Shown here: positions 2,879 through 57,720 of the stretch, piece after piece | How the letters are laid out: each line of letters starts with the position of its first letter | How positions within the stretch are numbered: position 1 is the stretch's first letter | Assembly: GCA_000993205.1 (NCBI GenBank) | Contig: LBVU01000002.1 | Location: 117,079-181,078, forward strand | DNA length: 64,000 nt | Reading direction: 5' to 3' | Origin: Candidatus Woesebacteria bacterium GW2011_GWB1_39_10 | GTDB taxonomy: Bacteria > Patescibacteriota > Microgenomatia > UBA8517 | Position numbers and translations under genes: made by a program | The notes under the pieces: model-generated | Databases searched by the model: none | Told to the model about the DNA's origin: nothing | Seen by the model: the letters and a program-made list of their open reading frames with translations, nothing else

Positions 2879-3178
2879 TTAAGCGGAGGCGGATCCTTCC
2901 TTTCTAATTAAAAGATAGCGTATCACATCAACGTCCGTTCTTAGTTTATCATCAAGCGCTTTGGCCCCGGTTGGGTCAAGCTCTATCTCAAAAAATAGGT
3001 ATAAACCGGTTTCGCTTTTGCCGATTTTGTAGGCCAATTCTTTAACTCCCCACTCTTTGGACTCTTTGATAGCGCCTTTAAAAATCTGAAGGGTTTTTTC
3101 AAAAGCCTCGACAACCTTCTTTTTCTTGGCCGCCCCGGCCTTGCCGTCCAAAACTACAGTCAGTTCATATTTGTTCAT
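2879..3178 (-). CDS. rpsF: 30S ribosomal protein S6
   Basis: MNKYELTVVLD start typical of S6; operon context. Confidence 0.88.
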   Translation of the reverse strand: MNKYELTVVLDGKAGAAKKKKVVEAFEKTLQIFKGAIKESKEWGVKELAYKIGKSETGLYLFFEIELDPTGAKALDDKLRTDVDVIRYLLIRKEGSASA

Positions 3179-3193
3179 ACAATTGGAATTATA

Positions 3194-4375
3194 TCAGCTT
3201 CCGATTTTGAACTCAACCACATCTCCGTCGTGCATTATATAGTCCCGGCCCTCGCTCCTGACTTTGCCTTCCTCACGACAAACCTTCCACCCGCCTACGC
3301 CCGGCTTCGGCGAGGCAGGCCCTCCAATAAAGTCACTAAAATCACAAACATCAGCTTTAATAAATTTTTTAATAAAATCCGTATGAATTACACCGGCGGC
3401 TTCTTGGGCACTGATCCCAACCGGAATGGTCCAAGCCCTAACTTCCTTCTCCCCTGCCGTTAAAAATGTAATTAGGCCGAGGGTTTTAAAAGCTTTCTGG
3501 ATTAACCTCTCCAATCCCGATTTTTTAATTCCAAGATCCTCCATGTATATTTTTTGGTCATCGTTAGAAAGTTCCGCAAGCTCGCTTTCGGTTTTGGCGC
3601 AAATTGCCACAACTTGATCGGGATTTAACTTGAGCTTTTCGGCAAAAGAAATTTCCAGATCATGCGCGTTTGCTAAATCTTTCTCATCCACATTCATAAC
3701 GACAAGGACGGGCTTGATTGTCAAAAGTCCTAGTTCTTTGGCTATTTTCCTCTCCTCCTCTGATACATCGTTATATAACGATGTATCACTGGATAAAATT
3801 GTTTTTAATCTCTGAACTGCTTGCCAGCGATCTTTTAATTCTTTATCCGGGGTATTGCCTGGGTCTTTTTGTTTTTCTAAAGTTTGAAGATCGGCCAGCG
3901 CAAGTTCAGTATTTAAGACCTCAAAGTCGCTTACGGGATCTTTTACTCCCTGTTTTACAATATCAGGGTCGGTAAATGCGCGAAGAACAAAACAAATCGC
4001 ATTGGTTTCCCTAATATGGCTTAAAAATTTGTTTCCTAATCCCTCACCTTTGCTAGCCCCGGCGATGAGACCAGCTATATCTACGAATTCGACAGTTGCT
4101 GGAACAATGGGGATACTCGATACTCGATACTCGATACTGGGTGGTTTTTTGTCCCCGCTTAGTATCTTAGTATCTCTATATCCTAGTATCTCCGACTCGA
4201 CAACTTTTCTAAGTTGTTCGAGGCGGCCGTCCGGAACCGGTACAATCCCTATGTTTGGTTCAATCGTTGCGAACGGAAAGTTCGCCACGTACGCCTGCTG
4301 CTTTTTAAGCAAAGCGTTAAAAAGTGTGGACTTCCCAACGTTTGATAACCCTACAATTGCCACACTAAGACTCAT
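3194..4375 (-). CDS. ychF: ribosome-binding ATPase YchF (Obg-family GTPase) carrying an about 30-aa in-frame insertion
   Basis: MSLSVAIVGLSNVGKSTLFNAL G1 motif, C-terminal TGS-like region; insertion ESEILGYRDTKILSGDKKPPSIEYRVSSIPI encoded by repeat 4112-4190. Confidence 0.88.
   Translation of the reverse strand: MSLSVAIVGLSNVGKSTLFNALLKKQQAYVANFPFATIEPNIGIVPVPDGRLEQLRKVVESEILGYRDTKILSGDKKPPSIEYRVSSIPIVPATVEFVDIAGLIAGASKGEGLGNKFLSHIRETNAICFVLRAFTDPDIVKQGVKDPVSDFEVLNTELALADLQTLEKQKDPGNTPDKELKDRWQAVQRLKTILSSDTSLYNDVSEEERKIAKELGLLTIKPVLVVMNVDEKDLANAHDLEISFAEKLKLNPDQVVAICAKTESELAELSNDDQKIYMEDLGIKKSGLERLIQKAFKTLGLITFLTAGEKEVRAWTIPVGISAQEAAGVIHTDFIKKFIKADVCDFSDFIGGPASPKPGVGGWKVCREEGKVRSEGRDYIMHDGDVVEFKIGS
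4112..4190. repeat. Palindromic oligonucleotide repeat (GATACTC)x4 ... (AGTATCT)x3 inside ychF coding sequence, in frame
   Basis: gatactcgatactcgatactcgatact at 4112-4138 and inverse agtatcttagtatc..tagtatc at 4161-4190; same heptamer family at 18470-18498 and 57339-57367. Confidence 0.8.
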
Positions 4376-4436
4376 TTTTTAGCCTCCCTTTCTTGACTTC
4401 TTGGGTAAATAGACATATAATATCCTCAAATTGGCG

Positions 4437-4880
4437 TTAGCCACGACCTTCTCGCTTCGGCGGGAAGGGCAAAACAAAGAATTTCGAAACTTCCTCTAAG
4501 ACTCTGAAAAAGTCACCCTCATCCATTTCTGATAATTTATTCCAAATTCGTTTTGAACTAAACACACGGATTTGTGAAATCATAACAGAAACAGTTTTAC
4601 CTTGCACTGATACCGGAACATAATATTTATTATCCTTAAGCTTTGTGCTCATGGGGATTCCCAAAAACAATTCACGATTGAATTTTTTGATAATTAGAAC
4701 GGGTCTAACAAAGTTTTCATTTTTACCATCCTCTTCAAAACCAACATTTACACCAACAGAAACCCACCAAATATCACGTTCTTTAAAAAGAGGTGGTGTT
4801 TTGATTTTGTAATGAGACTGCTTTTTCTTTTCAATCCATCCATCAAAATCTTTTGGGAAATTTACATCCATATAAAGCAA
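4437..4880 (-). CDS. PemK/MazF-family toxin-like protein (likely true start at an internal ATG, MDVNF...)
   Basis: RDIWWVSVGVNVGFEEDGKNENFVRPVLII and FLGIPMSTK match the PemK/Kid pattern GEIWLVSLDPTAGHEQQGTRPVLIV...LPVVVPVTS; track start is TTG. Confidence 0.6.
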   Translation of the reverse strand: MLYMDVNFPKDFDGWIEKKKQSHYKIKTPPLFKERDIWWVSVGVNVGFEEDGKNENFVRPVLIIKKFNRELFLGIPMSTKLKDNKYYVPVSVQGKTVSVMISQIRVFSSKRIWNKLSEMDEGDFFRVLEEVSKFFVLPFPPKREGRG

Positions 4881-4982
4881 TTATAATACTTTGAAGGAAA
4901 ATATTTACCTTGAAGTAGAAATTTATCCCTCAAAGTTTCAGCGAAGTGGGATCAAACTGTCCTTCGGCATGCTCAGGATAAA

Positions 4983-5008
4983 TTGGGACAGTGAAAAGAC
5001 TGTCCCAA
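4983..5008. promoter_or_regulatory. Perfect 10-bp inverted repeat TTGGGACAGT-gaaaag-ACTGTCCCAA in the divergent region between the PemK-like gene and the 5088 ORF
   Basis: Read directly; no T-run so probably an operator rather than a terminator. Confidence 0.4.
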
Positions 5009-5087
5009 TAGAAAGCGACGTGGCTAGATTTTAACATACTCTTTCCCCGATTTTTACTCGTCAGAAAAGAAGTGTATAATTCCCGCC

Positions 5088-5453
5088 ATGAAACAAGAAA
5101 TACTATTTGCGGAAGCCAAAAACCTGAAAGCTGAATTCACCTTTTCAAAACTGGATGCAGAGGAAAAAGAAATAGTTGACTCACTTGTCACATGGTCCAA
5201 TCCGGAAAGGTTTTCGGGTCAAATCAAACAACTTCACGGCAGAAGCGTTGTTATCAAAAGTCCGACAAGACACGTTTCTGATCCCATCGACTTTTTCATG
5301 GAAAAATATGACGGAATCCAAATTTTCGGATTTGGAGGCGCAAGGACAATGATCCGTGAAGGTGTCGCAGAAGTACCAAGCAAAATTGAAATTACACAAC
5401 TTAACGAATCCGACCATTCAAAAGAGCTTGCACAGATTCAGGAAAATTTTTAA
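5088..5453 (+). CDS. hypothetical protein (121 aa)
   Basis: ORF only. Confidence 0.45.
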   Translation: MKQEILFAEAKNLKAEFTFSKLDAEEKEIVDSLVTWSNPERFSGQIKQLHGRSVVIKSPTRHVSDPIDFFMEKYDGIQIFGFGGARTMIREGVAEVPSKIEITQLNESDHSKELAQIQENF

Positions 5454-5485
5454 GAACTCTTCACCAGACATTCGATTTAGCTTAT

Positions 5486-5917
5486 ATGGATGGACATTTG
5501 GGAAATATGAGTCTTCTTAGAACTGAGAAAAAAGCCGGAATTTATGCAACCGATTTGGGAAGCGTCAAAGATATAAAAAGCCACCCGTTTGCAGAAAAAT
5601 TCAGAGGAATTGATATATACACTTATATAGCAACATCACGTCGGCTTATGGCAAGCTATGCTAGTTATTTGGAAGCAAGGCATGGACAAGATAATGCAAT
5701 AAAAGATTTCCAGAATTTACTTACATTTATAAGTATTTCCGGCCTTGCTTCCGGATATTTTGAAACAGAAATAACAGATGGTGAAAGTATGTCTCCAACA
5801 GAAGTTGTTAAGAAAGGGAAAAAATTTGGAAACGATCTGGTAAAAATTTTCTCTCCGAATATCAGTCCTCAGGTCTCACTGGACATGTTCGAGATATACC
5901 TTAAGGAAATTATTTAG
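5486..5917 (+). CDS. hypothetical protein (143 aa)
   Basis: ORF only. Confidence 0.45.
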   Translation: MDGHLGNMSLLRTEKKAGIYATDLGSVKDIKSHPFAEKFRGIDIYTYIATSRRLMASYASYLEARHGQDNAIKDFQNLLTFISISGLASGYFETEITDGESMSPTEVVKKGKKFGNDLVKIFSPNISPQVSLDMFEIYLKEII

Positions 5918-9177: not shown

Positions 9178-10856
9178 TGAAATACATGAAGTTCGTCTTC
9201 GTGTCTGGTGGAGTTTTATCGGGCCTTGGAAAAGGGATTACTGCTTCAGCCCTTGCTCTTCTTCTCAAATCGCGCGGAATAAAAGTAACGCTAATGAAAT
9301 GTGATATGTATTTAAATATCGACGCAGGCACCATGAACCCCATGGAACACGGTGAAGTTTTTGTAACACACGACGGCCTGGAAACCGATCAAGACTTGGG
9401 ACATTACGAACGTTTTACGGGACTTACCCTTAACAAATCAAATTATCTAACCAACGGACAAATTTACAAAGTTGTTTTAGACAAGGAGCGGGCTCTGGGA
9501 TATGGAGGAATTTGTGTACAACCATATCACCACATTCCTCCCGAAATTATAAAAAGATGGAAAGAGGCTGGTGAAAAAAATAAAGCAGATGTTGTAATCG
9601 TTGAATTCGGCGGAACTGTTGGAGAATATGAAGGCCTCCTTTTTTATGAAGCATACCGGAGACTAAAGATGGAAAATCCGTCAGGTGTTTGTTTAATTCA
9701 TGTTGGTTACTTACCCGCACCGAATCACATTGGTGAACTTAAAAGCAAGCCCATGCAACAATCTATTATCAACCTTAATTCTCTTGGCGTTCAACCAGAC
9801 TTTATTGTTGGTCGAGCGGAAAATAACATTGACCTTAAAAGAAAAGAGAAAATTGCCTTTATCGCGGGACTTCCAATAGAAAACATTATTAGCAACCCCA
9901 ACTTATCATCTGTTTATCTACTTCCGGACAAACTTGAAAAAGAAAAATTGGCAGAAAAAGTAATTAAAAAACTACGTCTTGGAACCGGTAAATTAAATTT
10001 GAGCAAATGGCATGCCTTGATCAAAAAGATAGAAAAGGCCAATAAGGAAACCAATATCGCCATCGTTGGTAAGTATCAAAAAACCGGCGATTATATTCTG
10101 GAAGATACATATGTCAGCGTTATCGAAGCCCTAAAACACGCAGGATTTGAACTAGGAATTAAGCCAAAAATCACATGGATAGATTCCGAAGATTTTGATT
10201 ATAAGGAATTAAAAAATTTTGATGGGATTATTGTTCCTCAGGGTTGGGGCAAGCGCGGTGTTGAAGGGAAAATTAAAGCGGTTAAATTCGCCCGAGTTAA
10301 TAAAATTCCGTATTTGGGGCTTTGTTTTGGAATGCAAATGGCAGTTATAGAATTTGCAAGGACAGTCCTTGCAATGAAGGACGCAAATACAACTGAGGCA
10401 GATCCAAAAACAAATTGCCCGGTGATTCATGTAATGAACAATCAAAAAGAGTATCTGCTAAATAAACAATACGGTGGAACAATACGTCTTGGGGCCTGGC
10501 CGTGCAAATTAACCGGAGGGACAATTTTAGAAAAAGCCTACAAAAAATACGGAATGGACAAAGACGCCCCTTGGTTTGTGTCAAATACAAAGCACGAAGC
10601 ACGAAGCACGAAGACGGACATCGTTGTCTACGAAAGACATCGTCATAGATATGAGTTTAATAATAAATTCAAAGAAGAGTTTGAAAAAAATGGTTTTATA
10701 ATATCGGGGACTTCACCGGATGGAACATTGGTAGAAGCGATTGAGTTAGAAAACCATCCATTCTTTGTCGGTACGCAGTTTCATCCTGAATATATTAGTC
10801 GTCCGCTCTCCCCCCACCCAATATTTTTAGCGTTTGTTAAAGCATGTAAAAAATAA
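9177..10856 (+). CDS. pyrG: CTP synthase
   Basis: MKFVFVSGGVLSGLGKGITASAL N-terminus and C-terminal GATase domain (GLCFGMQ); contains in-frame KHEARSTK repeat insertion. Confidence 0.93.
   Translation: MKYMKFVFVSGGVLSGLGKGITASALALLLKSRGIKVTLMKCDMYLNIDAGTMNPMEHGEVFVTHDGLETDQDLGHYERFTGLTLNKSNYLTNGQIYKVVLDKERALGYGGICVQPYHHIPPEIIKRWKEAGEKNKADVVIVEFGGTVGEYEGLLFYEAYRRLKMENPSGVCLIHVGYLPAPNHIGELKSKPMQQSIINLNSLGVQPDFIVGRAENNIDLKRKEKIAFIAGLPIENIISNPNLSSVYLLPDKLEKEKLAEKVIKKLRLGTGKLNLSKWHALIKKIEKANKETNIAIVGKYQKTGDYILEDTYVSVIEALKHAGFELGIKPKITWIDSEDFDYKELKNFDGIIVPQGWGKRGVEGKIKAVKFARVNKIPYLGLCFGMQMAVIEFARTVLAMKDANTTEADPKTNCPVIHVMNNQKEYLLNKQYGGTIRLGAWPCKLTGGTILEKAYKKYGMDKDAPWFVSNTKHEARSTKTDIVVYERHRHRYEFNNKFKEEFEKNGFIISGTSPDGTLVEAIELENHPFFVGTQFHPEYISRPLSPHPIFLAFVKACKK
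10591..10613. repeat. Tandem heptamer (AGCACGA)x3 in frame inside pyrG
   Basis: agcacgaagcacgaagcacgaag read directly; encodes KHEARSTK. Confidence 0.75.
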
Positions 10857-12233: not shown

Positions 12234-13490
12234 CTATAAAGCTAGTAGTATTGAAGCAATTATCACCAATATCCCCACTCCGCCCGCAACAACTGTCGGC
12301 CAATCCGTACCCGTAACAGGAATTGGCCTGGGTGTTGAACTGGTTCCCGCTGAGGAGCCACTTGCAGTCCCTGTCGCGGTTGGTGTCGCAGTGGCAGTGG
12401 CGGTTGCTGTGGGAGTAGCCGTTGCTGTGGGAGTAGCTGTCGCGGTTGGTGTCGCAGTGGCAGTGGCGGTTGCTGTGGGAGTAGCCGTTGCTGTGGGAGT
12501 AGAAAGACATGTAATCGAAAAATTATCAAATTTTGCAGTAGTTGCTGGAAGTGGGTTGCCAGTTACCGGCATAGCAGCAAGACTGATAATCAAATCATCA
12601 GTTAGCGTGGTTGTAAAAACAATTAATTCTGTGAAAGTTGACGAGTTGGATAGTTTGTATGAAGTTGTAATTTTACCAGACTTTCTTTCGACCTTAAAGC
12701 TGACACTGTCAGTTCCATTAATTACCACAGATTTGTTTTGGTTGCCTGGAACAAAATTAACAGCCACATTATGCGCTTCTTGTTTAATATTTCTTCCAAC
12801 TGTAACTATTTTTGAACCATCTGGACTCACCAAAATAAGTGTTCCAGTAACCGCTCCTGTCCCCGTCTTAGTAAGAGCAGGCGCATCAAAAGTAATCACA
12901 AAATCTCCTGTTAAATATTTGGTACTGGTTATTTTAGATCCAGTTTGTTGCCCAGAAGTTACATCGAGAACCAACTGACCAGAAGACACTTTTGCATCCC
13001 CGACCTTACTCCATTTAGCAGAATCAATTGTGCTATCAAAACTATCAGAAAAGTTGTCTGAACAAGTCATACTTCCAGTTGGCCCCGGAGTTGGGGTCGC
13101 GGCAGCGCACTCAGTCATATCTTTGGTCCAAGCTCCGTTAAGTGACGGGCAGCAATATTGACTCCCTCCACATGATCCTATCCTACCGACTCGGTTACAA
13201 AGCTGTTCGTCCGGAGATCCATCGGCCTGGGCAGGGGTACAATTTCTTAAATGCGAAGGCGCCCCCGTGACAGGACACTGCTCGGCAGTAGGACAAGTTG
13301 TAGTCTGGGCCTTCTCTTGAATATTCTGTCTTTGACGCACAAGAAGTACTCCAGCAACAACACTAAGGATTAAAAAAACAACAATTAAAAAAGTCACTAT
13401 GATCCCCTTTTTTCCAAAACTCTTCTTCTTTGTTGAGGTTACTATTTCAAACGGAGAGGTTGTTTGCTTGTTAAGATTTTGGTCAGGCAT
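12234..13490 (-). CDS. cell-surface protein: N-terminal signal anchor, Cys-rich module, jelly-roll (LamG/ConA-like) segment, Pro-Thr-Ala repeat linker, C-terminal IPVTG plus hydrophobic anchor
   Basis: N-terminal TM IIVTFLIVVFLILSVVAGVLLV; (PTATAT)n repeats; C-terminus PIPVTGTDWPTVVAGGVGILVIIASILLAL resembles an LPXTG-type sorting signal. Confidence 0.6.
   Translation of the reverse strand: MPDQNLNKQTTSPFEIVTSTKKKSFGKKGIIVTFLIVVFLILSVVAGVLLVRQRQNIQEKAQTTTCPTAEQCPVTGAPSHLRNCTPAQADGSPDEQLCNRVGRIGSCGGSQYCCPSLNGAWTKDMTECAAATPTPGPTGSMTCSDNFSDSFDSTIDSAKWSKVGDAKVSSGQLVLDVTSGQQTGSKITSTKYLTGDFVITFDAPALTKTGTGAVTGTLILVSPDGSKIVTVGRNIKQEAHNVAVNFVPGNQNKSVVINGTDSVSFKVERKSGKITTSYKLSNSSTFTELIVFTTTLTDDLIISLAAMPVTGNPLPATTAKFDNFSITCLSTPTATATPTATATATATPTATATPTATATPTATATATATPTATGTASGSSAGTSSTPRPIPVTGTDWPTVVAGGVGILVIIASILLAL
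12340..12510. repeat. DNA-level tandem repeat (about 66-bp unit x2 plus partials) encoding the PT/AT-rich linker
   Basis: gttgctgtgggagtagccgttgctgtgggagtagctgtcgcggttggtgtcgcagtggcagtggcg repeated. Confidence 0.7.
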
Positions 13491-14933: not shown

Positions 14934-14965
14934 AATTGTAAATTGTAAATTGTAAATTGTAAATT
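14934..14965. repeat. Intergenic tandem octamer (AATTGTAA)x4
   Basis: aattgtaaattgtaaattgtaaattgtaaatt; reverse-complement copy caatttacaatttacaatttacaa at 39589-39612. Confidence 0.8.
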
Positions 14966-18276: not shown

Positions 18277-18882
18277 CTATAGTTCGCGGCGGCCTTCTAA
18301 GGCTTGGGTCAGAGTTGTCTCATCAGCATATTCTAAATCTGCTCCCGTTGGAATCCCCATCCCCAGGCGCGTAATTTTTAATTTTAAATTATTAATTTTT
18401 AATTGCTTGCCGAGGTACATGGCGGTAGCATTCCCTTCCATTGTGGGGTTTGTAGCAATAATTAGTTCAGATACTGGATACTCGATACTAGATACTCGCT
18501 TCAGTAAATCGTCAATATATAGTTCATCCGGGCCTATATTTTCCAATGGATTAATCGCCCCATGAAGAACATGATAAACACCTTTAAAATGAGTTCTTTC
18601 GAACGCAAGAATATCTAGGGGTTGCTCTACTACCATCACTAACGATTTGTCCCGCATCGGGTCTGTGCAAATCGGACAAGGGTCGTCCTCACTAATATTT
18701 TTGCAAATTGAACAAAGTTTTGTGTTTTTCTTCAAATTTAGGATTGAATCGGCAAACTCATCGAGTTGGACTTGAGGAACATGCAAAAGATAATAAGTAA
18801 GGCGCTGAGCGCTTTTTGGCCCGATACCAGGAAGCTTGCTAAAAGATTCAATTAGAGCGGTAATGGGACGAGCTATTTTCAT
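18277..18882 (-). CDS. recR: recombination protein RecR
   Basis: C4 zinc finger CSICKNISEDDPCPIC and Toprim LIIATNPTMEGNATAMYL; dnaX-ybaB-recR context. Confidence 0.92.
   Translation of the reverse strand: MKIARPITALIESFSKLPGIGPKSAQRLTYYLLHVPQVQLDEFADSILNLKKNTKLCSICKNISEDDPCPICTDPMRDKSLVMVVEQPLDILAFERTHFKGVYHVLHGAINPLENIGPDELYIDDLLKRVSSIEYPVSELIIATNPTMEGNATAMYLGKQLKINNLKLKITRLGMGIPTGADLEYADETTLTQALEGRREL
18470..18498. repeat. GATACT(G/C/A) heptamer tandem x4 in frame inside recR
   Basis: gatactggatactcgatactagatactcg; encodes ...SSIEYPVSE... Confidence 0.75.
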
Positions 18883-19619: not shown

Positions 19620-21062
19620 TTAATTCCCAAATATCTCTTCTGCAACCTTGATTATATCCTTATCCTTTCCTTCAGTCAAAATTGGTTCAATTTTTGTCTC
19701 TTCAATTATTTTTTTAGCCGGAGGCTCAACCAATGTACAAACGACTCTCGTGGGCGACTGTAAAACTCTGGCAACTATATTCTCTAAAACCTGTCTGTGC
19801 TGTGTATCTTCCAAGCGTTCTTTATGAAATTTGTAATAAACTCCCAAGGTCAGAGTTTTACCATCATAAGCCACTGGGCGAGCAGCCCGAAGTAACGCTT
19901 CGATTGAGGCATTTATTGGTTTTATTGAAGACAAAATAGTATTCCAAATCTCTCCTTCAACCTCCATATTTTCGACAGCCGCCTCAACTGTTTCTACAAC
20001 TTCCTCGACAGAAGTCTTGTCTCCCATGTCCCCACTCTTAGTTATCAGTTCTTCGTTCTTAGTTTCACCTCCACACCATTTTATTACGGCGATCTCGAGT
20101 GGTAATTCTTCGATAGGCGAGTCGGGTACTTGTCGGTTGGCCTCAATCAGGAGTTCTGCCAAAACTATCAGTTCGCGATTTTCTGAAATATCCAAGATAA
20201 TATTTTTGTGTATTTCAATTAGAGCCTGCTTAAGTATTCCTTCGGCACCCGCACCTGCCTCAACTGCGTTCTTAATGTAATTAAGGGCATTATGCAGATT
20301 TTTCTTGTATAGAAAACCGACAAACTCATCTACCCCCTGCGCTTTGCCTTTTTCCAAAAAATTATTACCTTCAACACTAACCTGCTCTAAAAGCTTTACC
20401 GCGTCCCTAAACGATCCGTTGGCGGCGCCGGCGATATCTTCCAAAGTTTTTGGATCAAAATCGAGTTTTTCCCCTTTAATCACACGTGTTAAAGATTGCC
20501 GGATTTCTTCAGAGCTTGCTTTCCTGAACCTGATAAATGTTGTCCTCGACCGGATTGTATCAATAAGTTTTTCCGGATTTGTTGTTGCTAAAATAAAAAC
20601 TACGTGTTCCGGGGGTTCCTCAATGGTTTTGAGAAGTGCATTACTGGCCTCAGTTGTTAACATGTGAGCCTCATCAATAATATATACTTTTTTATTCGCT
20701 TTTACCGGGGAGAGTTTGACGACGTCTCTTAGTGTTCTTACATCATCAATTCCACGGTGAGAAGCGGCATCCATTTCAATTACATCCAAATTATTACCTT
20801 TTGTTACGGAAACACATTGTTCACACTTATCACAAGGTTCATAGCTTTTCACTTTTAGCTTTTCACTTTTAGCTATCTCCTCACAGTTTATTATCTTTGC
20901 CATTATTCTCGCCGCGGAAGTTTTGCCTGTCCCTTTTGGCCCGGCGAATAAGAAAGCATGAGGAATTTTGCCCGAACTTACGATCTTTTTTAATGACTCA
21001 CGAACCTCAGGCAAGTCAAGTTCATCTAAATTATTTGAACGGTATTTTAGATAGAGAGTCAT
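19620..21062 (-). CDS. dnaX: DNA polymerase III subunit gamma/tau
   Basis: AAA+ Walker A GPKGTGKTSAARI, zinc module CEEIA..CDKCEQC; contains in-frame KSEKLKVKS insertion. Confidence 0.92.
   Translation of the reverse strand: MTLYLKYRSNNLDELDLPEVRESLKKIVSSGKIPHAFLFAGPKGTGKTSAARIMAKIINCEEIAKSEKLKVKSYEPCDKCEQCVSVTKGNNLDVIEMDAASHRGIDDVRTLRDVVKLSPVKANKKVYIIDEAHMLTTEASNALLKTIEEPPEHVVFILATTNPEKLIDTIRSRTTFIRFRKASSEEIRQSLTRVIKGEKLDFDPKTLEDIAGAANGSFRDAVKLLEQVSVEGNNFLEKGKAQGVDEFVGFLYKKNLHNALNYIKNAVEAGAGAEGILKQALIEIHKNIILDISENRELIVLAELLIEANRQVPDSPIEELPLEIAVIKWCGGETKNEELITKSGDMGDKTSVEEVVETVEAAVENMEVEGEIWNTILSSIKPINASIEALLRAARPVAYDGKTLTLGVYYKFHKERLEDTQHRQVLENIVARVLQSPTRVVCTLVEPPAKKIIEETKIEPILTEGKDKDIIKVAEEIFGN
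20843..20873. repeat. Tandem repeat (CTTTTCACTTTTAG)x2 inside dnaX, reverse complement of the AAAGTGAAAAG family
   Basis: agcttttcacttttagcttttcacttttagc; encodes AKSEKLKVKS in dnaX. Confidence 0.75.
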
Positions 21063-21172
21063 AAAACTAATTAAAAACTAATAACTTAGATCTAAAAATC
21101 ATAACTTAAATCTTAAAACTTTTGTTTTTTGTCTTTAGATAGGGTTATTAGTTATTAACTTTTAGATATTAA

Positions 21173-27537: not shown

Positions 27538-27629
27538 CTTGGTAATTAATAACTGAGAATTAATATCTAATAACTCGAATTAAAAACTTAAAGCAATCTC
27601 GGTTTTTAGATTTAAGATATGGTTATTAG

Positions 27630-28337
27630 TTATTGGTTATTAGTTTTTAATTTGGACTTACCCTCTAAAATTGCCTCCTTCACCAAACCAAGTACATATT
27701 CCAGCGCTTTGCTTGCATCATCATTCATAGGAATTGGGTAATCAATTGCATCCGGATCGGAGTTGCTATCGACTATACCAACGACGGTCACATGCCCCGC
27801 GTTTGCTTCCCTTACCGCCGATGCTTCTCTTTTTGTGTCAATAACAAAGAGCACGTCCGGAACTTTTTCCAGAGTTTCGACTCCCCCAAAAAATCTTTCA
27901 AGTCTGGTTATTTCGCGGTCAATTAAAAGCCTCTCTTTTTTTGTAAATTTAGCGTAACCACCCGAGGCCATATTTTCCCTCATCTCTTCCATTTTTTTAA
28001 GTGACTTTTTGATTTGACCAAAATTCGAAACTGTTCCACCCAACCATCTTTCGTTAACATATGGCACCCCGATTTCTTCCGCAACTTCCTTTACCTTTTC
28101 CTTGATTTGTTTTTTTGTTCCCAAAAGAAGTATTGTTTTGCCTTCTTTGGCAGATTTTGTTAGAAATTCCAAAGCTTCTTCGATAAGGGGTTTGGTTTTG
28201 GTTAAATCGAAAATATGAACTCCGTTTTCCGAGCCATAGATATACTCCTCCATTTTGGGGTTCCAACGTTTGGTTTGATGCCCAAAATGGGCACCTGCAT
28301 CCAATAAATCTTCGAGTGAAACTTTAAGTTTATTCAT
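27630..28337 (-). CDS. rpsB: 30S ribosomal protein S2 (start at MNKLKV; the track ORF is extended upstream through a repeat element)
   Basis: LLDAGAHFGHQTKRWNPKM conserved S2 N-terminus. Confidence 0.92.
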   Translation of the reverse strand: MNKLKVSLEDLLDAGAHFGHQTKRWNPKMEEYIYGSENGVHIFDLTKTKPLIEEALEFLTKSAKEGKTILLLGTKKQIKEKVKEVAEEIGVPYVNERWLGGTVSNFGQIKKSLKKMEEMRENMASGGYAKFTKKERLLIDREITRLERFFGGVETLEKVPDVLFVIDTKREASAVREANAGHVTVVGIVDSNSDPDAIDYPIPMNDDASKALEYVLGLVKEAILEGKSKLKTNNQ

Positions 28338-38406: not shown

Positions 38407-40524
38407 ATGATTAAATTACAAAAAATTATTTTCATTCTTTTTGCAATTCTTTTTTTCTTCGTTCCTTTAGTTTTGTGGCCGTATACATCTGAAGTTTTTG
38501 AATTTAACAAAATAGTCTTGGTATACATATTTACGGTTTTGATAGTTGCCGCATGGTTTGCAAGGACTGTCCTTGCACAAAAGATAATATTTCGTCGCAC
38601 AATATTAGATATACCACTTTTGGCATTTTTAGCTTCGCAATTTAGCTCAACCATTCTTTCGATAGACCCATCAACTTCTTGGTTGGGATATTATTCCAGG
38701 TTTAACGGCGGACTGCTTTCTACTATTTCCTATTCCCTACTTTATTGGGCCTTCGTTTCCAACTTAGACCGAAAACACGCCCTATATACTATATATTATA
38801 TACTTGCCTCCGCCTCGCTTGCTTCTGTTTACGGCGTATTAGAGCACTTCGGCATCGATAAAGCCCTCTGGGTTCAGGATGTTGCTTCCCGTGTATTTTC
38901 TACTCTTGGACAGCCGAATTGGCTGGCGGCGTTCCTCGTCGCGCTCCTGCCTATTACATGGGCTTTGGCGCTCACAAGATTCCAGATTCCACAACGAAGT
39001 TGGTTACGTAATTCCAGATTCTTGATACATTTCTTGCTTTCGATCCTATTTTTTTGGACATTAATATTTACCAAATCAAGATCGGGGCTTTTAGGATTTG
39101 GTGTAGCATTTCCGATTTTTTGGATGGGATATTTTTGGCTAAACCGAAAAAGTTTCTTGAAATGTCTTTCCCCTTTTGCCATTATTAGTTCTTCACTATT
39201 AATTATTAGTTTAATTTCCGGTACTCAATATACTCCCAACCTATATAACTTCTTAATTAAAACCAATAAAGGCTTGCCGGCCGAAACCCTGGTGAAGGCT
39301 GGGCCGGCTCTTGAAGTCGGTGGAACCGAGTCCGGTACTATCCGGAAAATCGTATGGCGCGGGGCTATCGAAATATGGAAACAGTACCCGATTTTTGGAA
39401 CAGGCGTCGAAACTTTTGCTTTTTCTTACTACCAATTTAGGCCCGTCGAACACAATTTAGTCTCCGAATGGGATTTTATTTACAACAAAGCACACAATGA
39501 GTACCTTAATCTCGCAGCCAATACAGGTAGTTTTGGATTAATTGCCTATTTAGTTCTTGTTAGTTTCTCGATATATCAAATGATTAAGAATTTACAATTT
39601 ACAATTTACAATTTACAAACAAATTCTAAGTTTGAAAATTTCAAAAATGAAAATTTATTGAAAATTGGTAATTGGAAATTGGTAATTCTCGGCCTCTTGG
39701 CCGGTTATACAAGTCTTCTCGTAACCAATTTTTTTGGTTTTTCGGTCGTTCCAACCCAACTCCAGTTATTTTTATTTCCGGCGATAGCGATTATTTTAGC
39801 TAAAAGTGAAGAGGTAAAAGTGAAAAGTGAAACGATAAATACCAATCAAAAAGTTCTAATTCTTATAACGCTCTTAGTTCTTAGTTATTCGCTTTTCGTT
39901 ATCGGCAAATATTGGTATTCCGATACTCTTTATGCCAAAGGTAAGGGATATAACAGCATTCAACGACCGGATGCCGCCATCAACTATTTAGTCCGGGCTA
40001 CTAATATGAAACCCAACCAACCACTATTTCACAGTGAGTTGGCAAACTCATACGCGGCCATGGCGCTTGCTCTTTATAACCAGAAAGACATAAATGGATC
40101 TAAAAAGTATGTCGATTTGGCAATTAGCGAATCAGACAAATCTGTTACCCTTTCTGCCTCTATGCTGAATTTAAAAAGATCGCGTTTTGGAGTATTCGTA
40201 GTGCTTTCAACTATAAATCCGAACCATCTTCTTATTGCCCAAGAAACTTTAATTGATGCTATAACATTTGCTCCAACCGATGCAAAACTTTATTACAATT
40301 TAGGTCTGACCTACGCAAGAACCGGCCAACCGGACCGCGCAATTGAAATTCTAATTAAAACAATCGGTTTAAAAGCCAATTACAGAGACGCAAGGCTTGC
40401 ATATGCATATCTCTTAATTGACAAGAACAAGAACACTGAGGCAAAAGAACAACTCGGATATATTCTTAAATCTATCGACCCCAACGATTCACTTGCCAAA
40501 CAGGCGCTTGAGAGCATCAAATAA
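38407..40524 (+). CDS. O-antigen ligase (Wzy_C) family membrane protein with C-terminal TPR repeats
   Basis: RKIVWRGAIEIWKQYPIFGTGVETF matches the R..W....P.GxGxG.F ligase motif; about 10 TM helices; TPR-like C-terminus; contains three in-frame oligo repeats. Confidence 0.75.
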   Translation: MIKLQKIIFILFAILFFFVPLVLWPYTSEVFEFNKIVLVYIFTVLIVAAWFARTVLAQKIIFRRTILDIPLLAFLASQFSSTILSIDPSTSWLGYYSRFNGGLLSTISYSLLYWAFVSNLDRKHALYTIYYILASASLASVYGVLEHFGIDKALWVQDVASRVFSTLGQPNWLAAFLVALLPITWALALTRFQIPQRSWLRNSRFLIHFLLSILFFWTLIFTKSRSGLLGFGVAFPIFWMGYFWLNRKSFLKCLSPFAIISSSLLIISLISGTQYTPNLYNFLIKTNKGLPAETLVKAGPALEVGGTESGTIRKIVWRGAIEIWKQYPIFGTGVETFAFSYYQFRPVEHNLVSEWDFIYNKAHNEYLNLAANTGSFGLIAYLVLVSFSIYQMIKNLQFTIYNLQTNSKFENFKNENLLKIGNWKLVILGLLAGYTSLLVTNFFGFSVVPTQLQLFLFPAIAIILAKSEEVKVKSETINTNQKVLILITLLVLSYSLFVIGKYWYSDTLYAKGKGYNSIQRPDAAINYLVRATNMKPNQPLFHSELANSYAAMALALYNQKDINGSKKYVDLAISESDKSVTLSASMLNLKRSRFGVFVVLSTINPNHLLIAQETLIDAITFAPTDAKLYYNLGLTYARTGQPDRAIEILIKTIGLKANYRDARLAYAYLLIDKNKNTEAKEQLGYILKSIDPNDSLAKQALESIK
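39589..39687. repeat. In-frame tandem repeats (CAATTTACAA)x3 and (GAAATTGGTAATTG)x2 inside the O-antigen ligase-like gene
   Basis: aatttacaatttacaatttacaaa 39589-39612 and gaaaattggtaattggaaattggtaattc 39654-39687. Confidence 0.75.
39798..39832. repeat. AAAGTGAAAAG-family tandem repeat in frame (encodes EEVKVKSET)
   Basis: agctaaaagtgaagaggtaaaagtgaaaagtgaaa. Confidence 0.75.
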
Positions 40525-40567: not shown

Positions 40568-41101
40568 ATGATCAGAAAGATAATTCAATCGGGTAACCCG
40601 ATTTTAAGACGAAAATCCAAAAACATTGCCAAGGTGGACAAAAAGGTTCAGGAGATAATCAGGGATCTGAAGGATACATTAAAGACCCAAAAAGAACCGG
40701 AAGGTGTGGGCCTGGCAGCTCCCCAAATCGGCAAGAATCTGAATATCTTCATTGCTAGCTACAAAAATTTTCAACGAGTGGTAATAAACCCTGAAATTTT
40801 GAAAATTTCAGGAGCTAAAAGTGAAAAGCTAAAAGTGAAAAGTAAGAAGGAAATACTCGAAGGCTGCTTGTCACTTCCTTATTACTACGGACCTCTAAAA
40901 CGAGCGGATAAAATCACCGTTAAATATCTAAACGAAAAAGGAGAAGAAATTACGGAAGATTTAGAAGGTTTTGATGCTCAAATAATTCTTCACGAAATTG
41001 ATCACCTTGAGGGAAAATTGTTCATCGACAGACTTTTTGAAGAAAAGAAACCCTTGTATAAAGTTGATGGAGATGAATGGGAAGAGGTGGAGCTTTCGTA
41101 G
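40568..41101 (+). CDS. def: peptide deformylase
   Basis: EGCLSLP and HEIDHLEG metal-binding motifs; def-fmt pair; carries in-frame KSEKLKVKSKK insertion. Confidence 0.92.
   Translation: MIRKIIQSGNPILRRKSKNIAKVDKKVQEIIRDLKDTLKTQKEPEGVGLAAPQIGKNLNIFIASYKNFQRVVINPEILKISGAKSEKLKVKSKKEILEGCLSLPYYYGPLKRADKITVKYLNEKGEEITEDLEGFDAQIILHEIDHLEGKLFIDRLFEEKKPLYKVDGDEWEEVELS
40813..40842. repeat. AAAGTGAAAAG-family tandem repeat in frame inside def
   Basis: agctaaaagtgaaaagctaaaagtgaaaag. Confidence 0.8.
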
Positions 41102-53905: not shown

Positions 53906-55726
53906 TTGATGGATTTTAAAACCAGATTTGATTCTCTGCCGGTACCCACCAAAAGGCTCCTTGGAATAGGTGTTGTTTTGGCCCTCGCAGTTGCTCTTCC
54001 CCTTTTTGTTTGGTCCATTATTACTCAAAGATTTCTAATCAATAAACGCGCCGCGTCCGGAGAGCCGGGTGTTTGTATCGCGCAAAATAAAATCATTATA
54101 GTTACCCCATCCTCAAACTCCAACGGAACCTGTCATGATATCCAAATGGCGATTAATGCGGTAACGGGAGAAGGATACACTGTTCAAATTGAGCCGGGAA
54201 TTTATAACATTGCTTCTACTATTAATGTAAGTGGAAAAACAACTATAAACATCACGGGTAATCCGCAGGCAGGTTCCGGCGCAACCGTCATAAACTCAAC
54301 TCCGGGTGGCGGTTGGGGTATTTTAGTAGAAAACTCGTCGGGAACGATTCAGTACCTGACAATGCAAGGAGGAAGTTCAAACGGAATGCTGAGTATTAAA
54401 AATAGCAACAATTTTTCGGTGGGATATGCAAACCTTAATTCTCAGACCTCTCATACCATGGACATTCAGGGTTCAAACACAATTAGTGTTTTTAATACAG
54501 AAATAACAAGCTCGGCCGGCGCGCTCGAAATCGGTGGATCAGCAAATATAAATATTTCGAATAATAAAATTCACAATTCCAATAATGCCATTGCAATCAA
54601 CAATTCATCCGGTGTTAGACTACTCGGTAATCTTATATACGGGAATCGTGAATCAGGCCTTGTTATTAACACCTATACGAATAATGTTAGGGATTTTAAG
54701 GCCATGCATAATACTTTCGTAAACAACGCTTTGGGCGGCAACACTATTCCAACCATATCTTTATTGGGAACATCCGGCCGCAATCTTGAATTCAGCAATA
54801 ATATAGTTTTGGGAGGCTTGGGGGCAGGGATTGGCTCCAAAAATCGTTTGCTTTTTAACACTTTTACTCTCAACGATATTTTTGGAAATACTCCAAATTA
54901 CGAGAGATATCCAAATCAAACCGGCAGGAGCGGGAACATTTCAAAAGACCCGCTTTTGAATAGCAACAACTTTATTTACTGCCCCTCACCCGCATCTCCC
55001 GTAGTTTATGGAAATATCGCAAACGGCAAATACATGGGCTATATCGGGCCCTGCGGAACATCAACCCCGCCACCGACTCCGACTCCATCTCCTACCCCAA
55101 CCGGATATCCGAGTCCGACACCGACTACGACGCCGACTGCTGTGCCGTCAGGAACGCCGGGAACAACTCCTCCCCCAACCGTAAGGCCTTTTCAAATTCT
55201 ATTTAAGTTTGATGGTGTAACAGACGGCTCGGCGGCAACCTCGGGTGCCACCGTCCGGTTTAGAGGAGGTCCAAATGGTTCCATTGACTTGATAACACCC
55301 ACAATTCCAACGACTTATATTGGCAGCGGAATCTATCAACTATATTTTGCAACGAATTTGCCTGACGATACCAACTACTCGGTTTCATTAAAAGGAGAAA
55401 AACACCTTGCAATTAGATTTTGCTACCCAAGCGAACAAACTACTTATTGTTCAGATAGTCAAGGACACATTGGTGTTTACAACGCTTCCGGTCCTGAGAA
55501 TTTGGACTTTACAGGAATTCCTCTTCCTGCAGGCGACACATACCCGCAAGACGGAGTTGTCAATTCTACCGACTACGACAGAGTAAGAAGTTTATTTAGC
55601 AAACCGGATTCCGAATTAACAACTACTGACAAACTTGTAGGCGATCTTAATTACGATGGGTTCATCGATATCCGAGACTCATTCCTGATTAGGAAAACAT
55701 TAGGAACCAGATACGATGAAAGCTAA
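53906..55726 (+). CDS. secreted right-handed parallel beta-helix protein with Pro/Thr linker and C-terminal dockerin-like module
   Basis: N-terminal signal/TM; repeated N-x-G/I-x-N beta-helix rungs; PPPTPTPSPTPTGYPSPTPTTTPT linker; two Ca-binding-loop-like repeats DGVVNSTDYDRVRSLF and DLNYDGFIDIRDSFLIRKTLG. Confidence 0.65.
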   Translation: MMDFKTRFDSLPVPTKRLLGIGVVLALAVALPLFVWSIITQRFLINKRAASGEPGVCIAQNKIIIVTPSSNSNGTCHDIQMAINAVTGEGYTVQIEPGIYNIASTINVSGKTTINITGNPQAGSGATVINSTPGGGWGILVENSSGTIQYLTMQGGSSNGMLSIKNSNNFSVGYANLNSQTSHTMDIQGSNTISVFNTEITSSAGALEIGGSANINISNNKIHNSNNAIAINNSSGVRLLGNLIYGNRESGLVINTYTNNVRDFKAMHNTFVNNALGGNTIPTISLLGTSGRNLEFSNNIVLGGLGAGIGSKNRLLFNTFTLNDIFGNTPNYERYPNQTGRSGNISKDPLLNSNNFIYCPSPASPVVYGNIANGKYMGYIGPCGTSTPPPTPTPSPTPTGYPSPTPTTTPTAVPSGTPGTTPPPTVRPFQILFKFDGVTDGSAATSGATVRFRGGPNGSIDLITPTIPTTYIGSGIYQLYFATNLPDDTNYSVSLKGEKHLAIRFCYPSEQTTYCSDSQGHIGVYNASGPENLDFTGIPLPAGDTYPQDGVVNSTDYDRVRSLFSKPDSELTTTDKLVGDLNYDGFIDIRDSFLIRKTLGTRYDES

Positions 55727-57021: not shown

Positions 57022-57051
57022 AGCTTTTCACTTTTCGCTCTTCACTTTTAG
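57022..57051. repeat. AAAGTGAAAAG-family repeat (reverse complement) encoding the C-terminal KLKVKSEK of RNase HII and forming an imperfect hairpin with 57000-57021
   Basis: agcttttcacttttcgctcttcacttttag opposite agctaaaaagtaagaac. Confidence 0.65.
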
Positions 57052-57720
57052 TTTGTTGAGCCAAGTGGCGACGAAGGCTTTCCTGTGCAATTTAGTCGCT
57101 CCATATTTTTTGATGGCATTTTGGTGTTCTTTTGTCCCATACCCTTTGTTTTTACCCCATTTGTAAACTCTAAATTTTGGATTTTTGGAGATTTTTACCA
57201 TTAGTTTATCCCGATAGACTTTGGCGACAATTGAGGCTGCTGCGATTGAAATCGATTTCGTATCCCCTTTAATAATGGCCTTTTGGTTTTTTCTTCTTAG
57301 ACTCCTTACGTAAGGTATGAAGAAGGCGTCAATGAGTAGATACTCGATACTGGATACTTTGATACTCACACTTTTGATCGCTTTACGGAAAGCTATTTCT
57401 GAGGCTTTTTTTATCCCAAACCGATTTATTTGTGCCACACTTGCCTGTCCGATTCCAATCGCAAGTGCATTTTGCCGTATCCATTTATCTGCAACTTTCC
57501 TCTGTCTTGGAGTAAGTTGTTTTGAGTCGTTGATAATTATTTTGCGATTACCTTTCAAGACCGTGTCTTTAAAGGTGGTTATAGTATTTCTGTCAAAGAC
57601 AACACATCCTGCCACAATTGCGCCGGCAAAACAGCCTCTACCTACCTCATCCATACCGGCAACAACCTTAAAACCTTTATTCCACAGCTTCTTTTCAAAG
57701 GAGAAATCCGGAAGTGTCAT
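57028..57720 (-). CDS. rnhB: ribonuclease HII
   Basis: VAGMDEVGRGCFAGAIVAGCVVF catalytic N-terminus; contains in-frame SSIEYLLID insertion and KVKSEK tail. Confidence 0.88.
   Translation of the reverse strand: MTLPDFSFEKKLWNKGFKVVAGMDEVGRGCFAGAIVAGCVVFDRNTITTFKDTVLKGNRKIIINDSKQLTPRQRKVADKWIRQNALAIGIGQASVAQINRFGIKKASEIAFRKAIKSVSIKVSSIEYLLIDAFFIPYVRSLRRKNQKAIIKGDTKSISIAAASIVAKVYRDKLMVKISKNPKFRVYKWGKNKGYGTKEHQNAIKKYGATKLHRKAFVATWLNKLKVKSEK
57339..57367. repeat. GATACT(C/G/T) heptamer tandem x4 in frame inside rnhB
   Basis: gatactcgatactggatactttgatactc. Confidence 0.75.

Follow-up and report, generated by a model that had tools for sequence, protein, structure and literature searches.

Two opposed GATACT arrays in the ychF gene of Candidatus Woesebacteria GW2011_GWB1_39_10: a palindromic element or a pair of heptamer-array modules?

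How does a palindromic segment of repetitive DNA come to be read in frame within a conserved housekeeping gene? The question is raised by ychF of Candidatus Woesebacteria GW2011_GWB1_39_10, a groundwater bacterium of the candidate phyla radiation, in a 64-kb stretch of its genome (here called the window) where an array of GATACT and an array of its inverse, AGTATC, lie inside the gene on either side of a short spacer. The original prediction took the whole for a discrete palindromic element, an analogue of the Rickettsia palindromic elements (RPEs). The analogy holds insofar as a hairpin-capable insert, absent from close orthologues, is present in frame, but the discrete mobile palindrome was not borne out: the spacer is unique, the arms are of unlike period, solitary GATACT x4 arrays occur in recR and rnhB, of the 23 arrays examined in the window about 18 stand alone, and heptamer arrays of many different units, in conserved genes as well as between genes, are found across the genome and the clade. 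The ychF element is read here instead, with about even confidence, as two array modules lying in opposite orientation in a surface loop that tolerates insertions, the hairpin being a by-product and not the unit of mobility.

The host gene, which encodes the ribosome-binding ATPase YchF, is an open reading frame (ORF) of 393 amino acids on the minus strand (3194-4375) with the Pfam domains MMR_HSR1 and YchF-GTPase_C, and its product matches E. coli YchF (8kie) at E 9e-86. The frame is open throughout, and translation passes through the element, as ...VVESEILGYRDTKILSGDKKPPSIEYRVSSIPIVPATVEFVDIAG, with neither stop nor frameshift, in agreement with the in-frame translation first proposed. Array A (4112-4138, plus strand) has the letters GATACTC GATACTC GATACTC GATACT, a perfect period-7 array of 3.9 copies with 100% matches in Tandem Repeats Finder (TRF), just where four copies of GATACTC had been noted; on the mRNA strand it reads (G)AGTATC four times and encodes SIEYRVSSI. 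A G+C-rich spacer of 19-22 nt (4139-4157, or to 4160) forms the loop of the hairpin and is unique in the window. Array B (4158-4191, plus strand) is a period-8 array, CTTAGTAT x4.2 with 78% matches in TRF, whose letters are CTTAGTAT CTTAGTAT CTCTATAT CCTAGTAT CT and whose mRNA strand consists of AGATACTA-type units encoding EILGYRDTKIL. Three copies of AGTATCT at 4161-4190 had been proposed for this arm; three exact AGTATC hexamers are indeed present (at 4161, 4169 and 4185), but the arm occupies 4158-4191 and has four units of period 8, one of which, lying between the exact ones, is degenerate. Since one arm is of period 7 and the other of period 8, neither is a simple inverted copy of the other.

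Folding of the 101 nt at 4100-4200 supported the predicted hairpin, with -30.3 kcal/mol (z -4.1) on the mRNA strand and -36.4 (z -4.4) on the plus strand in four stems of 5-6 bp each, and none of 200 shuffles folded as well. Array-armed hairpins fold about equally on both strands, so that folding does not discriminate between selection at the RNA level and at the DNA level. No Rfam family matched 3800-4500 at E up to 1, and a structured RNA is rejected on that ground. A promoter or terminator at the element was also considered and set aside, with just a weak 9/12 antisense match (2 sites, 0.8 expected). Nor does the element resemble repetitive extragenic palindromes (REP) or REPINs, as it has no GTAG tag, its arms are tandem arrays and it is intragenic; REP-associated tyrosine transposases (RAYTs) were not searched for systematically.

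Residues 62-89 of the protein have no counterpart in YchF of E. coli or Haemophilus influenzae or in the solved YchF structures; measured against the usual 367-residue YchF of Woesebacteria, the loop has a net gain of 18 residues and not the approximately 30 of the original prediction, the remaining 8 extra residues being a separate C-terminal insert. The insertion follows the RLxxL helix and precedes the strand that runs into DIAG, and the closest orthologues (at most 82% protein identity) are without it. No orthologue carries the 30-residue segment, so the case of the same residues encoded without a repeat in the DNA did not arise. In the AlphaFold model (mean pLDDT 74.9), a helix at 51-73 is followed by a loop at 74-89 (pLDDT below 50 at 77-84) and a strand at 93-99; the model shows the insert as a predicted extension of the native helix and a low-confidence loop protruding from the YchF fold, in keeping with the surface loop that had been anticipated. 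The ychF element is an in-frame insertion at a structurally tolerated position.

Where array A sits, orthologues read P-P-I-V-P-A-T, with no local AGTATC seed. The sense strand around it is CCA CCC, AGTATC GAGTATC GAGTATC GAGTATC CCC, ATT, such that the array is bounded by a 3-bp direct repeat, GGG...GGG (sense CCC; 4109-4141). Because orthologues have PP-IVPAT there, array A looks like a 30-bp (10-codon) insertion flanked by CCC (GGG) and made without a local seed, the 3-bp repeat being weak evidence. Five other ychF genes of Woesebacteria were examined, and in three of these the same loop holds other arrays: an inverted TCAGNNN / CTGAAAA pair (z -5.1), a direct AAATTCT array, and an inverted period-8 pair, GATTAAGC / ACTTAATA. 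One of the remaining two has a non-periodic insert and the other has none. The window's own ychF arrays are restricted to one species. The YchF loop of P0005 was checked as a possible decayed AGTATC array and is not one.

A second insert in YchF (approximately 3290-3330, residues ~351-360) is likewise in frame; it is G+C-rich, encodes (L/P)ASPKPG(V/I)G, and is scattered among Woesebacteria lineages, its DNA being nearly identical between the window and locus L008. The P-loop of this YchF reads GLSNVGKS, with the serine at residue 11 (4343-4345), versus GLPNVGKS in nearly all aligned orthologues.

An error of assembly or sequencing, or the decay of a pseudogene, is scarcely credible as the origin of the insert. 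The ychF DNA is 100% identical across the element in six independent contigs (ENA, JGI and Logan assemblies of different samples), by which an assembly artefact is rejected, and the frame is open with its G-domain motifs present. What speaks for error is a single assembly of the same population, GWA2_40_7 (L007; GCA_000994565.1, LBZO01000031.1), which is 100% identical over 12.8 kb apart from two gaps, one of 117 bp in ychF (4110-4226) and one of 123 bp in pyrG (10537-10659) that takes in an AAGCACG array. These gaps also take conserved residues (RLxxL of YchF, ERHRHRYEF of PyrG), for which reason L007 was rejected as an empty site; and since the pyrG gap ends on its right side, at 10660, where the original scaffold L131 has a 10-N gap and where L137 has a contig end, both gaps are probably mis-closed scaffold gaps. 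Both are multiples of 3 and in frame, for which there is no explanation beyond chance. In the L007 genome, rnhB is intact, its array included. Further contigs end at arrays (14937, ~18403-18410, 18494-18497), and one contig is chimeric at a TAATTTT array; the arrays clearly disturb metagenome assembly.

No copy-number variation of the arrays was found among the independent assemblies of this population, in all of which they are identical; the only repeat to vary is one of 66 bp at 12371-12502. A phase-variation locus is not indicated, the hosts being housekeeping genes (ychF, recR, rnhB, dnaX, pyrG) with intact frames and no length variants. The 66-bp repeat is a perfect tandem duplication inside a 418-residue ORF (12234-13490), present as one copy (396 residues) in some assemblies; its length polymorphism is either real or assembly-level.

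The search for copies that the original prediction had called for covered the window and its flanks; it yielded GATACT x4 in two further genes and no second full unit. No second full-length 80-bp copy was found in the 64 kb plus flanks of the genome or in the other DNA examined, no second copy of the spacer (4139-4160) was found in the window at up to 3 mismatches, and the inverted GATACT..AGTATC pattern occurs within the window in ychF only, while GATACTCGATACT at up to 2 mismatches has 8 matches against 0.72 expected. The GATACT x4 array of recR (18469-18498, plus strand; gene 18277-18882, minus strand) encodes RVSSIEYPVSE, and that of rnhB (57339-57367, plus strand; gene 57028-57720, minus strand) encodes SIKVSSIEYLL; neither has an inverse partner. 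SSIEY is encoded by GATACT x4 in ychF, recR and rnhB, and VSSIEY in the latter two, where the arrays add just 2-3 residues relative to the solved structures of RecR and RNase HII. RecR has a pair of fixed sites, R129-E139 and K159-R172, at which many of the 80 lineages compared carry arrays of constant length and differing unit; these units are AGTATCN, AATCACN, AATCAGG, AGTACNN, AATTAAA, AATTAAC, TTATTAA, AAATTGG and AAAAGTG. Whole recR arrays differ by one base in every unit (AATTAAA x5 and AATTAAC x5, for example), which is concerted change. With arrays of other units in the same loops of YchF, RecR (both sites) and RNase HII in relatives, the picture is one of turnover or concerted evolution. 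In RNase HII, the array peptide V-S-S-I-E/D-Y is common to several lineages of 66-74% identity.

Arrays of this size are abundant in the window. There are 15 period-7 arrays where shuffles have 0.3, periods 4-6 and 8-12 being at expectation, and TRF reports 28 period-7 arrays in the 64 kb. Several fall into families that recur at separate loci: GATACTN (4112, 18469, 57339), AAATTGT (14934, 39589), AAAAGTG (39802, 57024, and embedded in 14-nt units at 20842 and 40813) and AACTAAT/AACTAAG (2325, 27622, 20036, 39872). Chance would give 0.4 identical-class pairs, whereas 5 are present (P about 0.0005). In 542 kb of related loci from Microgenomates, 157 period-7 arrays were counted, against 35 of period 6 and 51 of period 8, and their copy numbers peak at 4-5 (24 arrays of 3 units, 48 of 4, 38 of 5 and 4 of 6). 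A same-unit partner within 110 bp is inverted for 15 of 118 arrays and direct for 22 of 118, so that orientation looks unselective.

Against these data may be set the possibility that the ychF element is a mobile palindrome of the kind of RPEs or of miniature inverted-repeat transposable elements, inserted as one unit of ~80 bp with hexamer terminal inverted repeats for a transposase encoded elsewhere, the solitary arrays being half-elements or footprints. This would explain the hairpin architecture, a spacer framed by four hexamers in direct and four in inverted orientation, as well as an in-frame insertion that orthologues lack and in which array A, but not array B, is flanked by a 3-bp direct repeat; and several assemblies have contigs that break off at arrays, as happens at dispersed repeats. 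The window also holds three more hairpins of 80-110 nt with arrays for arms, and similar ones occur in other lineages and phyla. One lies in the ORF of a 705-residue membrane protein (38407-40524) and consists of AATTTAC x4.3, a 38-nt spacer and ATTGGNA x4.4 (39589-39687, plus strand; z -4.0 / -4.6); the others are intergenic, one of the AACTAAT / TTATTAG family (21063-21172; z -2.7 / -3.5) and one of TAATAAC x~5 ... GTTATTA x4 (27538-27655; z -3.6 / -2.9). The spacers of the four hairpins, however, look unrelated, and neither the ychF spacer nor its whole unit has a second copy. The ychF arms are of unlike period, most arrays are solitary, and same-unit pairs are met with in direct as often as in inverted orientation. 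The recR and rnhB arrays, moreover, add only 2-3 residues and have kept to fixed sites over long evolutionary spans. No transposase was identified beside any array, though ORFs were not scanned systematically for one. A mobile palindrome is on balance distinctly improbable.

The reading as two array modules may be put as follows. Both ychF arrays, which share the hexamer core GATACT/AGTATC, would be members of a class of arrays of ~30 bp, built of 4-5 units of 7 nt, that pervades the genomes of Woesebacteria and other Microgenomates, array A being presumably young and perfect (period 7, x4) and array B degenerate (period 8, x4). The loop of YchF that holds them would be solvent-exposed and variable in length. 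The enrichment of such arrays, their presence in the same loops and spacers with lineage-specific units, the concerted change of units and the recurrence of units within one genome are observed. Slipped-strand mispairing, or short-patch templated repair within the array, could make the arrays and keep them homogeneous, and new sites could be seeded by copying from existing arrays through ectopic conversion or template switching; the ychF arrays may derive in this way from old AGTATC arrays such as those of recR and rnhB. Selection would then retain those insertions that are in frame, free of stops and in tolerant loops.

Several points weigh against this account, beginning with the fact that we infer the mechanism by which arrays arise and spread. 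Plain slippage predicts copy numbers that fall monotonically and not a mode at 4-5, and it gives no account of one non-trivial unit in three genes. The GGG...GGG on either side of array A may be a duplicated target site. More than 120 loci, from many phyla, have GATACTN arrays, some as inverted pairs and mostly in apparently intergenic positions, and the occurrence of arrays and inverted pairs in phyla as unrelated as Bacteroidota, Omnitrophota and Planctomycetota hints at something specific to this unit. Finally, between the window and the Woesebacteria genome GWB1_41_10 (L147), the recR arrays are identical at 33 of 33 and 44 of 45 nt, against 68% identity elsewhere in the gene and 36% at third codon positions; in further species the array matches at 32/33 (L225) and 29/33 (L226) or has decayed (L224). 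Where synonymous sites have reached saturation between species, arrays frozen in this way point to selection acting on the sequence as DNA or RNA, or to arrays being exchanged or re-written between species; neutral turnover predicts neither.

It is possible, though rather unlikely, that the arrays, perhaps with their hairpins, are functional cis-elements selected at the nucleotide level, whether as multimers of a protein-binding site in DNA or mRNA or as signals of promotion, termination or translation, and that the ychF pair was newly recruited to such a role. Besides the near or complete identity of recR arrays between species, the peptide V-S-S-I-E/D-Y is kept in recR and rnhB in several lineages, the intergenic inverted arrays of the AACTAAT family fold as hairpins, GATACTN arrays and inverted pairs occur in the three phyla named above, and a role in translational regulation has been proposed for the TAACTGA arrays of Beggiatoaceae (PMC4679880). 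The spacer upstream of cysS is filled entirely by an AATTTAC/AATTGTA x4.6 array (14934-14965; minus strand 14963..14935). This array reads TTTACA-N17-TACAAT in the orientation of the gene, and its unit is also found upstream of cysS in L226 (5752-5782) and of rpsB in L224 (1246-1275). A heptamer array of ~29 bp may accordingly be a complete predicted promoter, and we infer more generally that an array length of ~29-30 bp, the modal one, matches the span of -35 and -10 hexamers at 17-bp spacing. Opposed to a cis-acting role are the confinement of the ychF arrays to one species, the lower conservation of the recR array sites over all lineage pairs (0.50 and 0.57, versus 0.69 for the rest of the gene), and the absence of any Rfam match, with a promoter-like match at ychF that is weak (9/12; 2 against 0.8 expected). 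Many different units coexist in one genome, and a single binding factor does not fit such diversity.

A bolder proposal, which we regard as doubtful, is that Woesebacteria and other Microgenomates actively maintain a system of ~30-bp modules that are written, homogenised and exchanged at fixed sites in essential genes and spacers, some of them invariant across species, with the ychF palindrome as a recent double insertion. If this were so, the arrays would represent a new class of sequence-specific cis-elements or of very small mobile modules, and the mode of 4-5 units could reflect a molecular ruler, such as promoter-like geometry or a multimeric binding protein.

Other features were noted alongside these arrays. 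The peptide KVKSE recurs from arrays of the AAAAGTG family in dnaX (20842-20874), the membrane protein (39802-39832) and a 177-residue ORF (40813-40843), and is present also in the C-terminal tail of RNase HII (57024-57049); DnaX has 7 residues more than in L224 and L226, equal to 3 units of this family. The ssb-rpsR spacer (2325-2358) is wholly a CTAATAA-type heptamer array that begins at the ssb stop codon and has stops in several frames; it is kept in L008 (12788-12817), and L227 has an unrelated hairpin instead. A coding array of period 6 (CCGACT x11, 64% matches, 55073-55138 in the ORF 53906-55726) is a class apart. Directly upstream of ychF is a PemK-family toxin-like gene (4437-4880). 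In L227, a gene for a large serine recombinase runs into the annotated 5' end of ychF (3129-4760 and 4723-5820), which suggests an integrated element adjoining ychF in that related genome.

No description of GATACT arrays was found in the literature, nor any of tandem-repeat or hairpin insertions in genes of the candidate phyla radiation. The same is true of three features seen here, namely conserved intragenic array sites with changing units, one unit across several genes, and the freezing of arrays between species; these go beyond published accounts of bacterial heptanucleotide repeats, and together they point either to an unrecognised process of templated copying or to a cis-acting function inside coding sequence. 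Proteins of the candidate phyla radiation are known for odd insertions, and the present case shows one concrete source of them, short heptamer arrays that settle again and again in the same tolerant loops of conserved proteins. On the practical side, such arrays break metagenome assemblies and can yield false in-frame deletions in deposited genomes.

Among known systems, the closest in outward form are the RPEs, which the review consulted (PMC10969869, after Ogata et al. 2000) describes as ~150 bp long and inserted in frame into genes of Rickettsia; they form sequence families whose full-length copies, nearly identical, run to dozens and encode a conserved peptide. Like these, the ychF element is a palindromic segment that enters a housekeeping gene without loss of frame and adds a peptide where the fold tolerates it. 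Unlike them, it is a unit of 80 bp with a unique spacer, of which only the 28-bp tandem arrays recur, and its arms, instead of forming a unique inverted repeat, repeat a hexamer core in tandem. The arrays themselves bring to mind HutP-type NAG-N4 arrays, Fur-box hexamer arrays, DnaA boxes and the -10 hexamer GATACT of lambda PL, which we take to be resemblances only, none of them fitting the period of 7 or 8 nt or the diversity of units.

The likeness is greater to the heptanucleotide long simple sequence repeats (LSSRs) and the short tandemly repeated repetitive (STRR) sequences of Calothrix and Nostoc (Mrazek et al. 2007; Mazel 1990), in which, as far as the citing accounts go, there is also an excess at period 7, with short arrays, many units and slippage as the proposed origin. 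According to Mrazek (2007), as quoted in PMC4692102 and PMC4679880, heptanucleotides are the commonest class of long simple repeats in bacteria and are attributed to polymerase slippage; in the summary of PMC4679880, long simple repeats are mainly intergenic, and those found in genes have units that are multiples of 3. The head-to-tail 7-nt units and the period-7 excess of that class are found here also, array B having period 8 and the same hexamer core. The arrays of the window differ in lying mostly inside essential genes at conserved sites, in their mode of 4-5 units, in the concerted change of units and in the recurrence of units between loci.

The GGGAATC / GGGGAYT arrays of Xanthomonas and Nostoc lie between genes and, being G-rich, form quadruplexes, some of them being inverted pairs that give stem-loops or cruciforms (PMC4692102). 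They share with the GATACT arrays the dispersal of one heptamer family through a genome, some copies as inverted pairs, whereas the GATACT arrays are coding and not G-rich. The TAACTGA arrays of Beggiatoaceae, cyanobacteria and Bacteroidetes are sets of 2-6 heptamers that frequently lie directly before start codons, with read-through in one orientation only, a patchy spread across phyla and no known mechanism of spreading (PMC4679880). Near-identical units are present here, as the TAACTAA arrays of the window's spacers and as TCAGTTA in the YchF loop of L010; TAACTGA, however, is one dominant unit and mostly intergenic, while the arrays described here have many units and are mostly intragenic. 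In Nostoc, small dispersed repeats (SDRs) of 21-27 nt, reportedly described by Elhai and colleagues in 2008, are said to be unique sequences inserted into heptamer arrays, with hairpins, a mobile-like behaviour and no known enzyme. The arrays of Woesebacteria resemble these as repeated modules of less than 30 nt that behave as if mobile and are tied to tandem heptamers, with the difference that here the arrays themselves are the dispersed unit.

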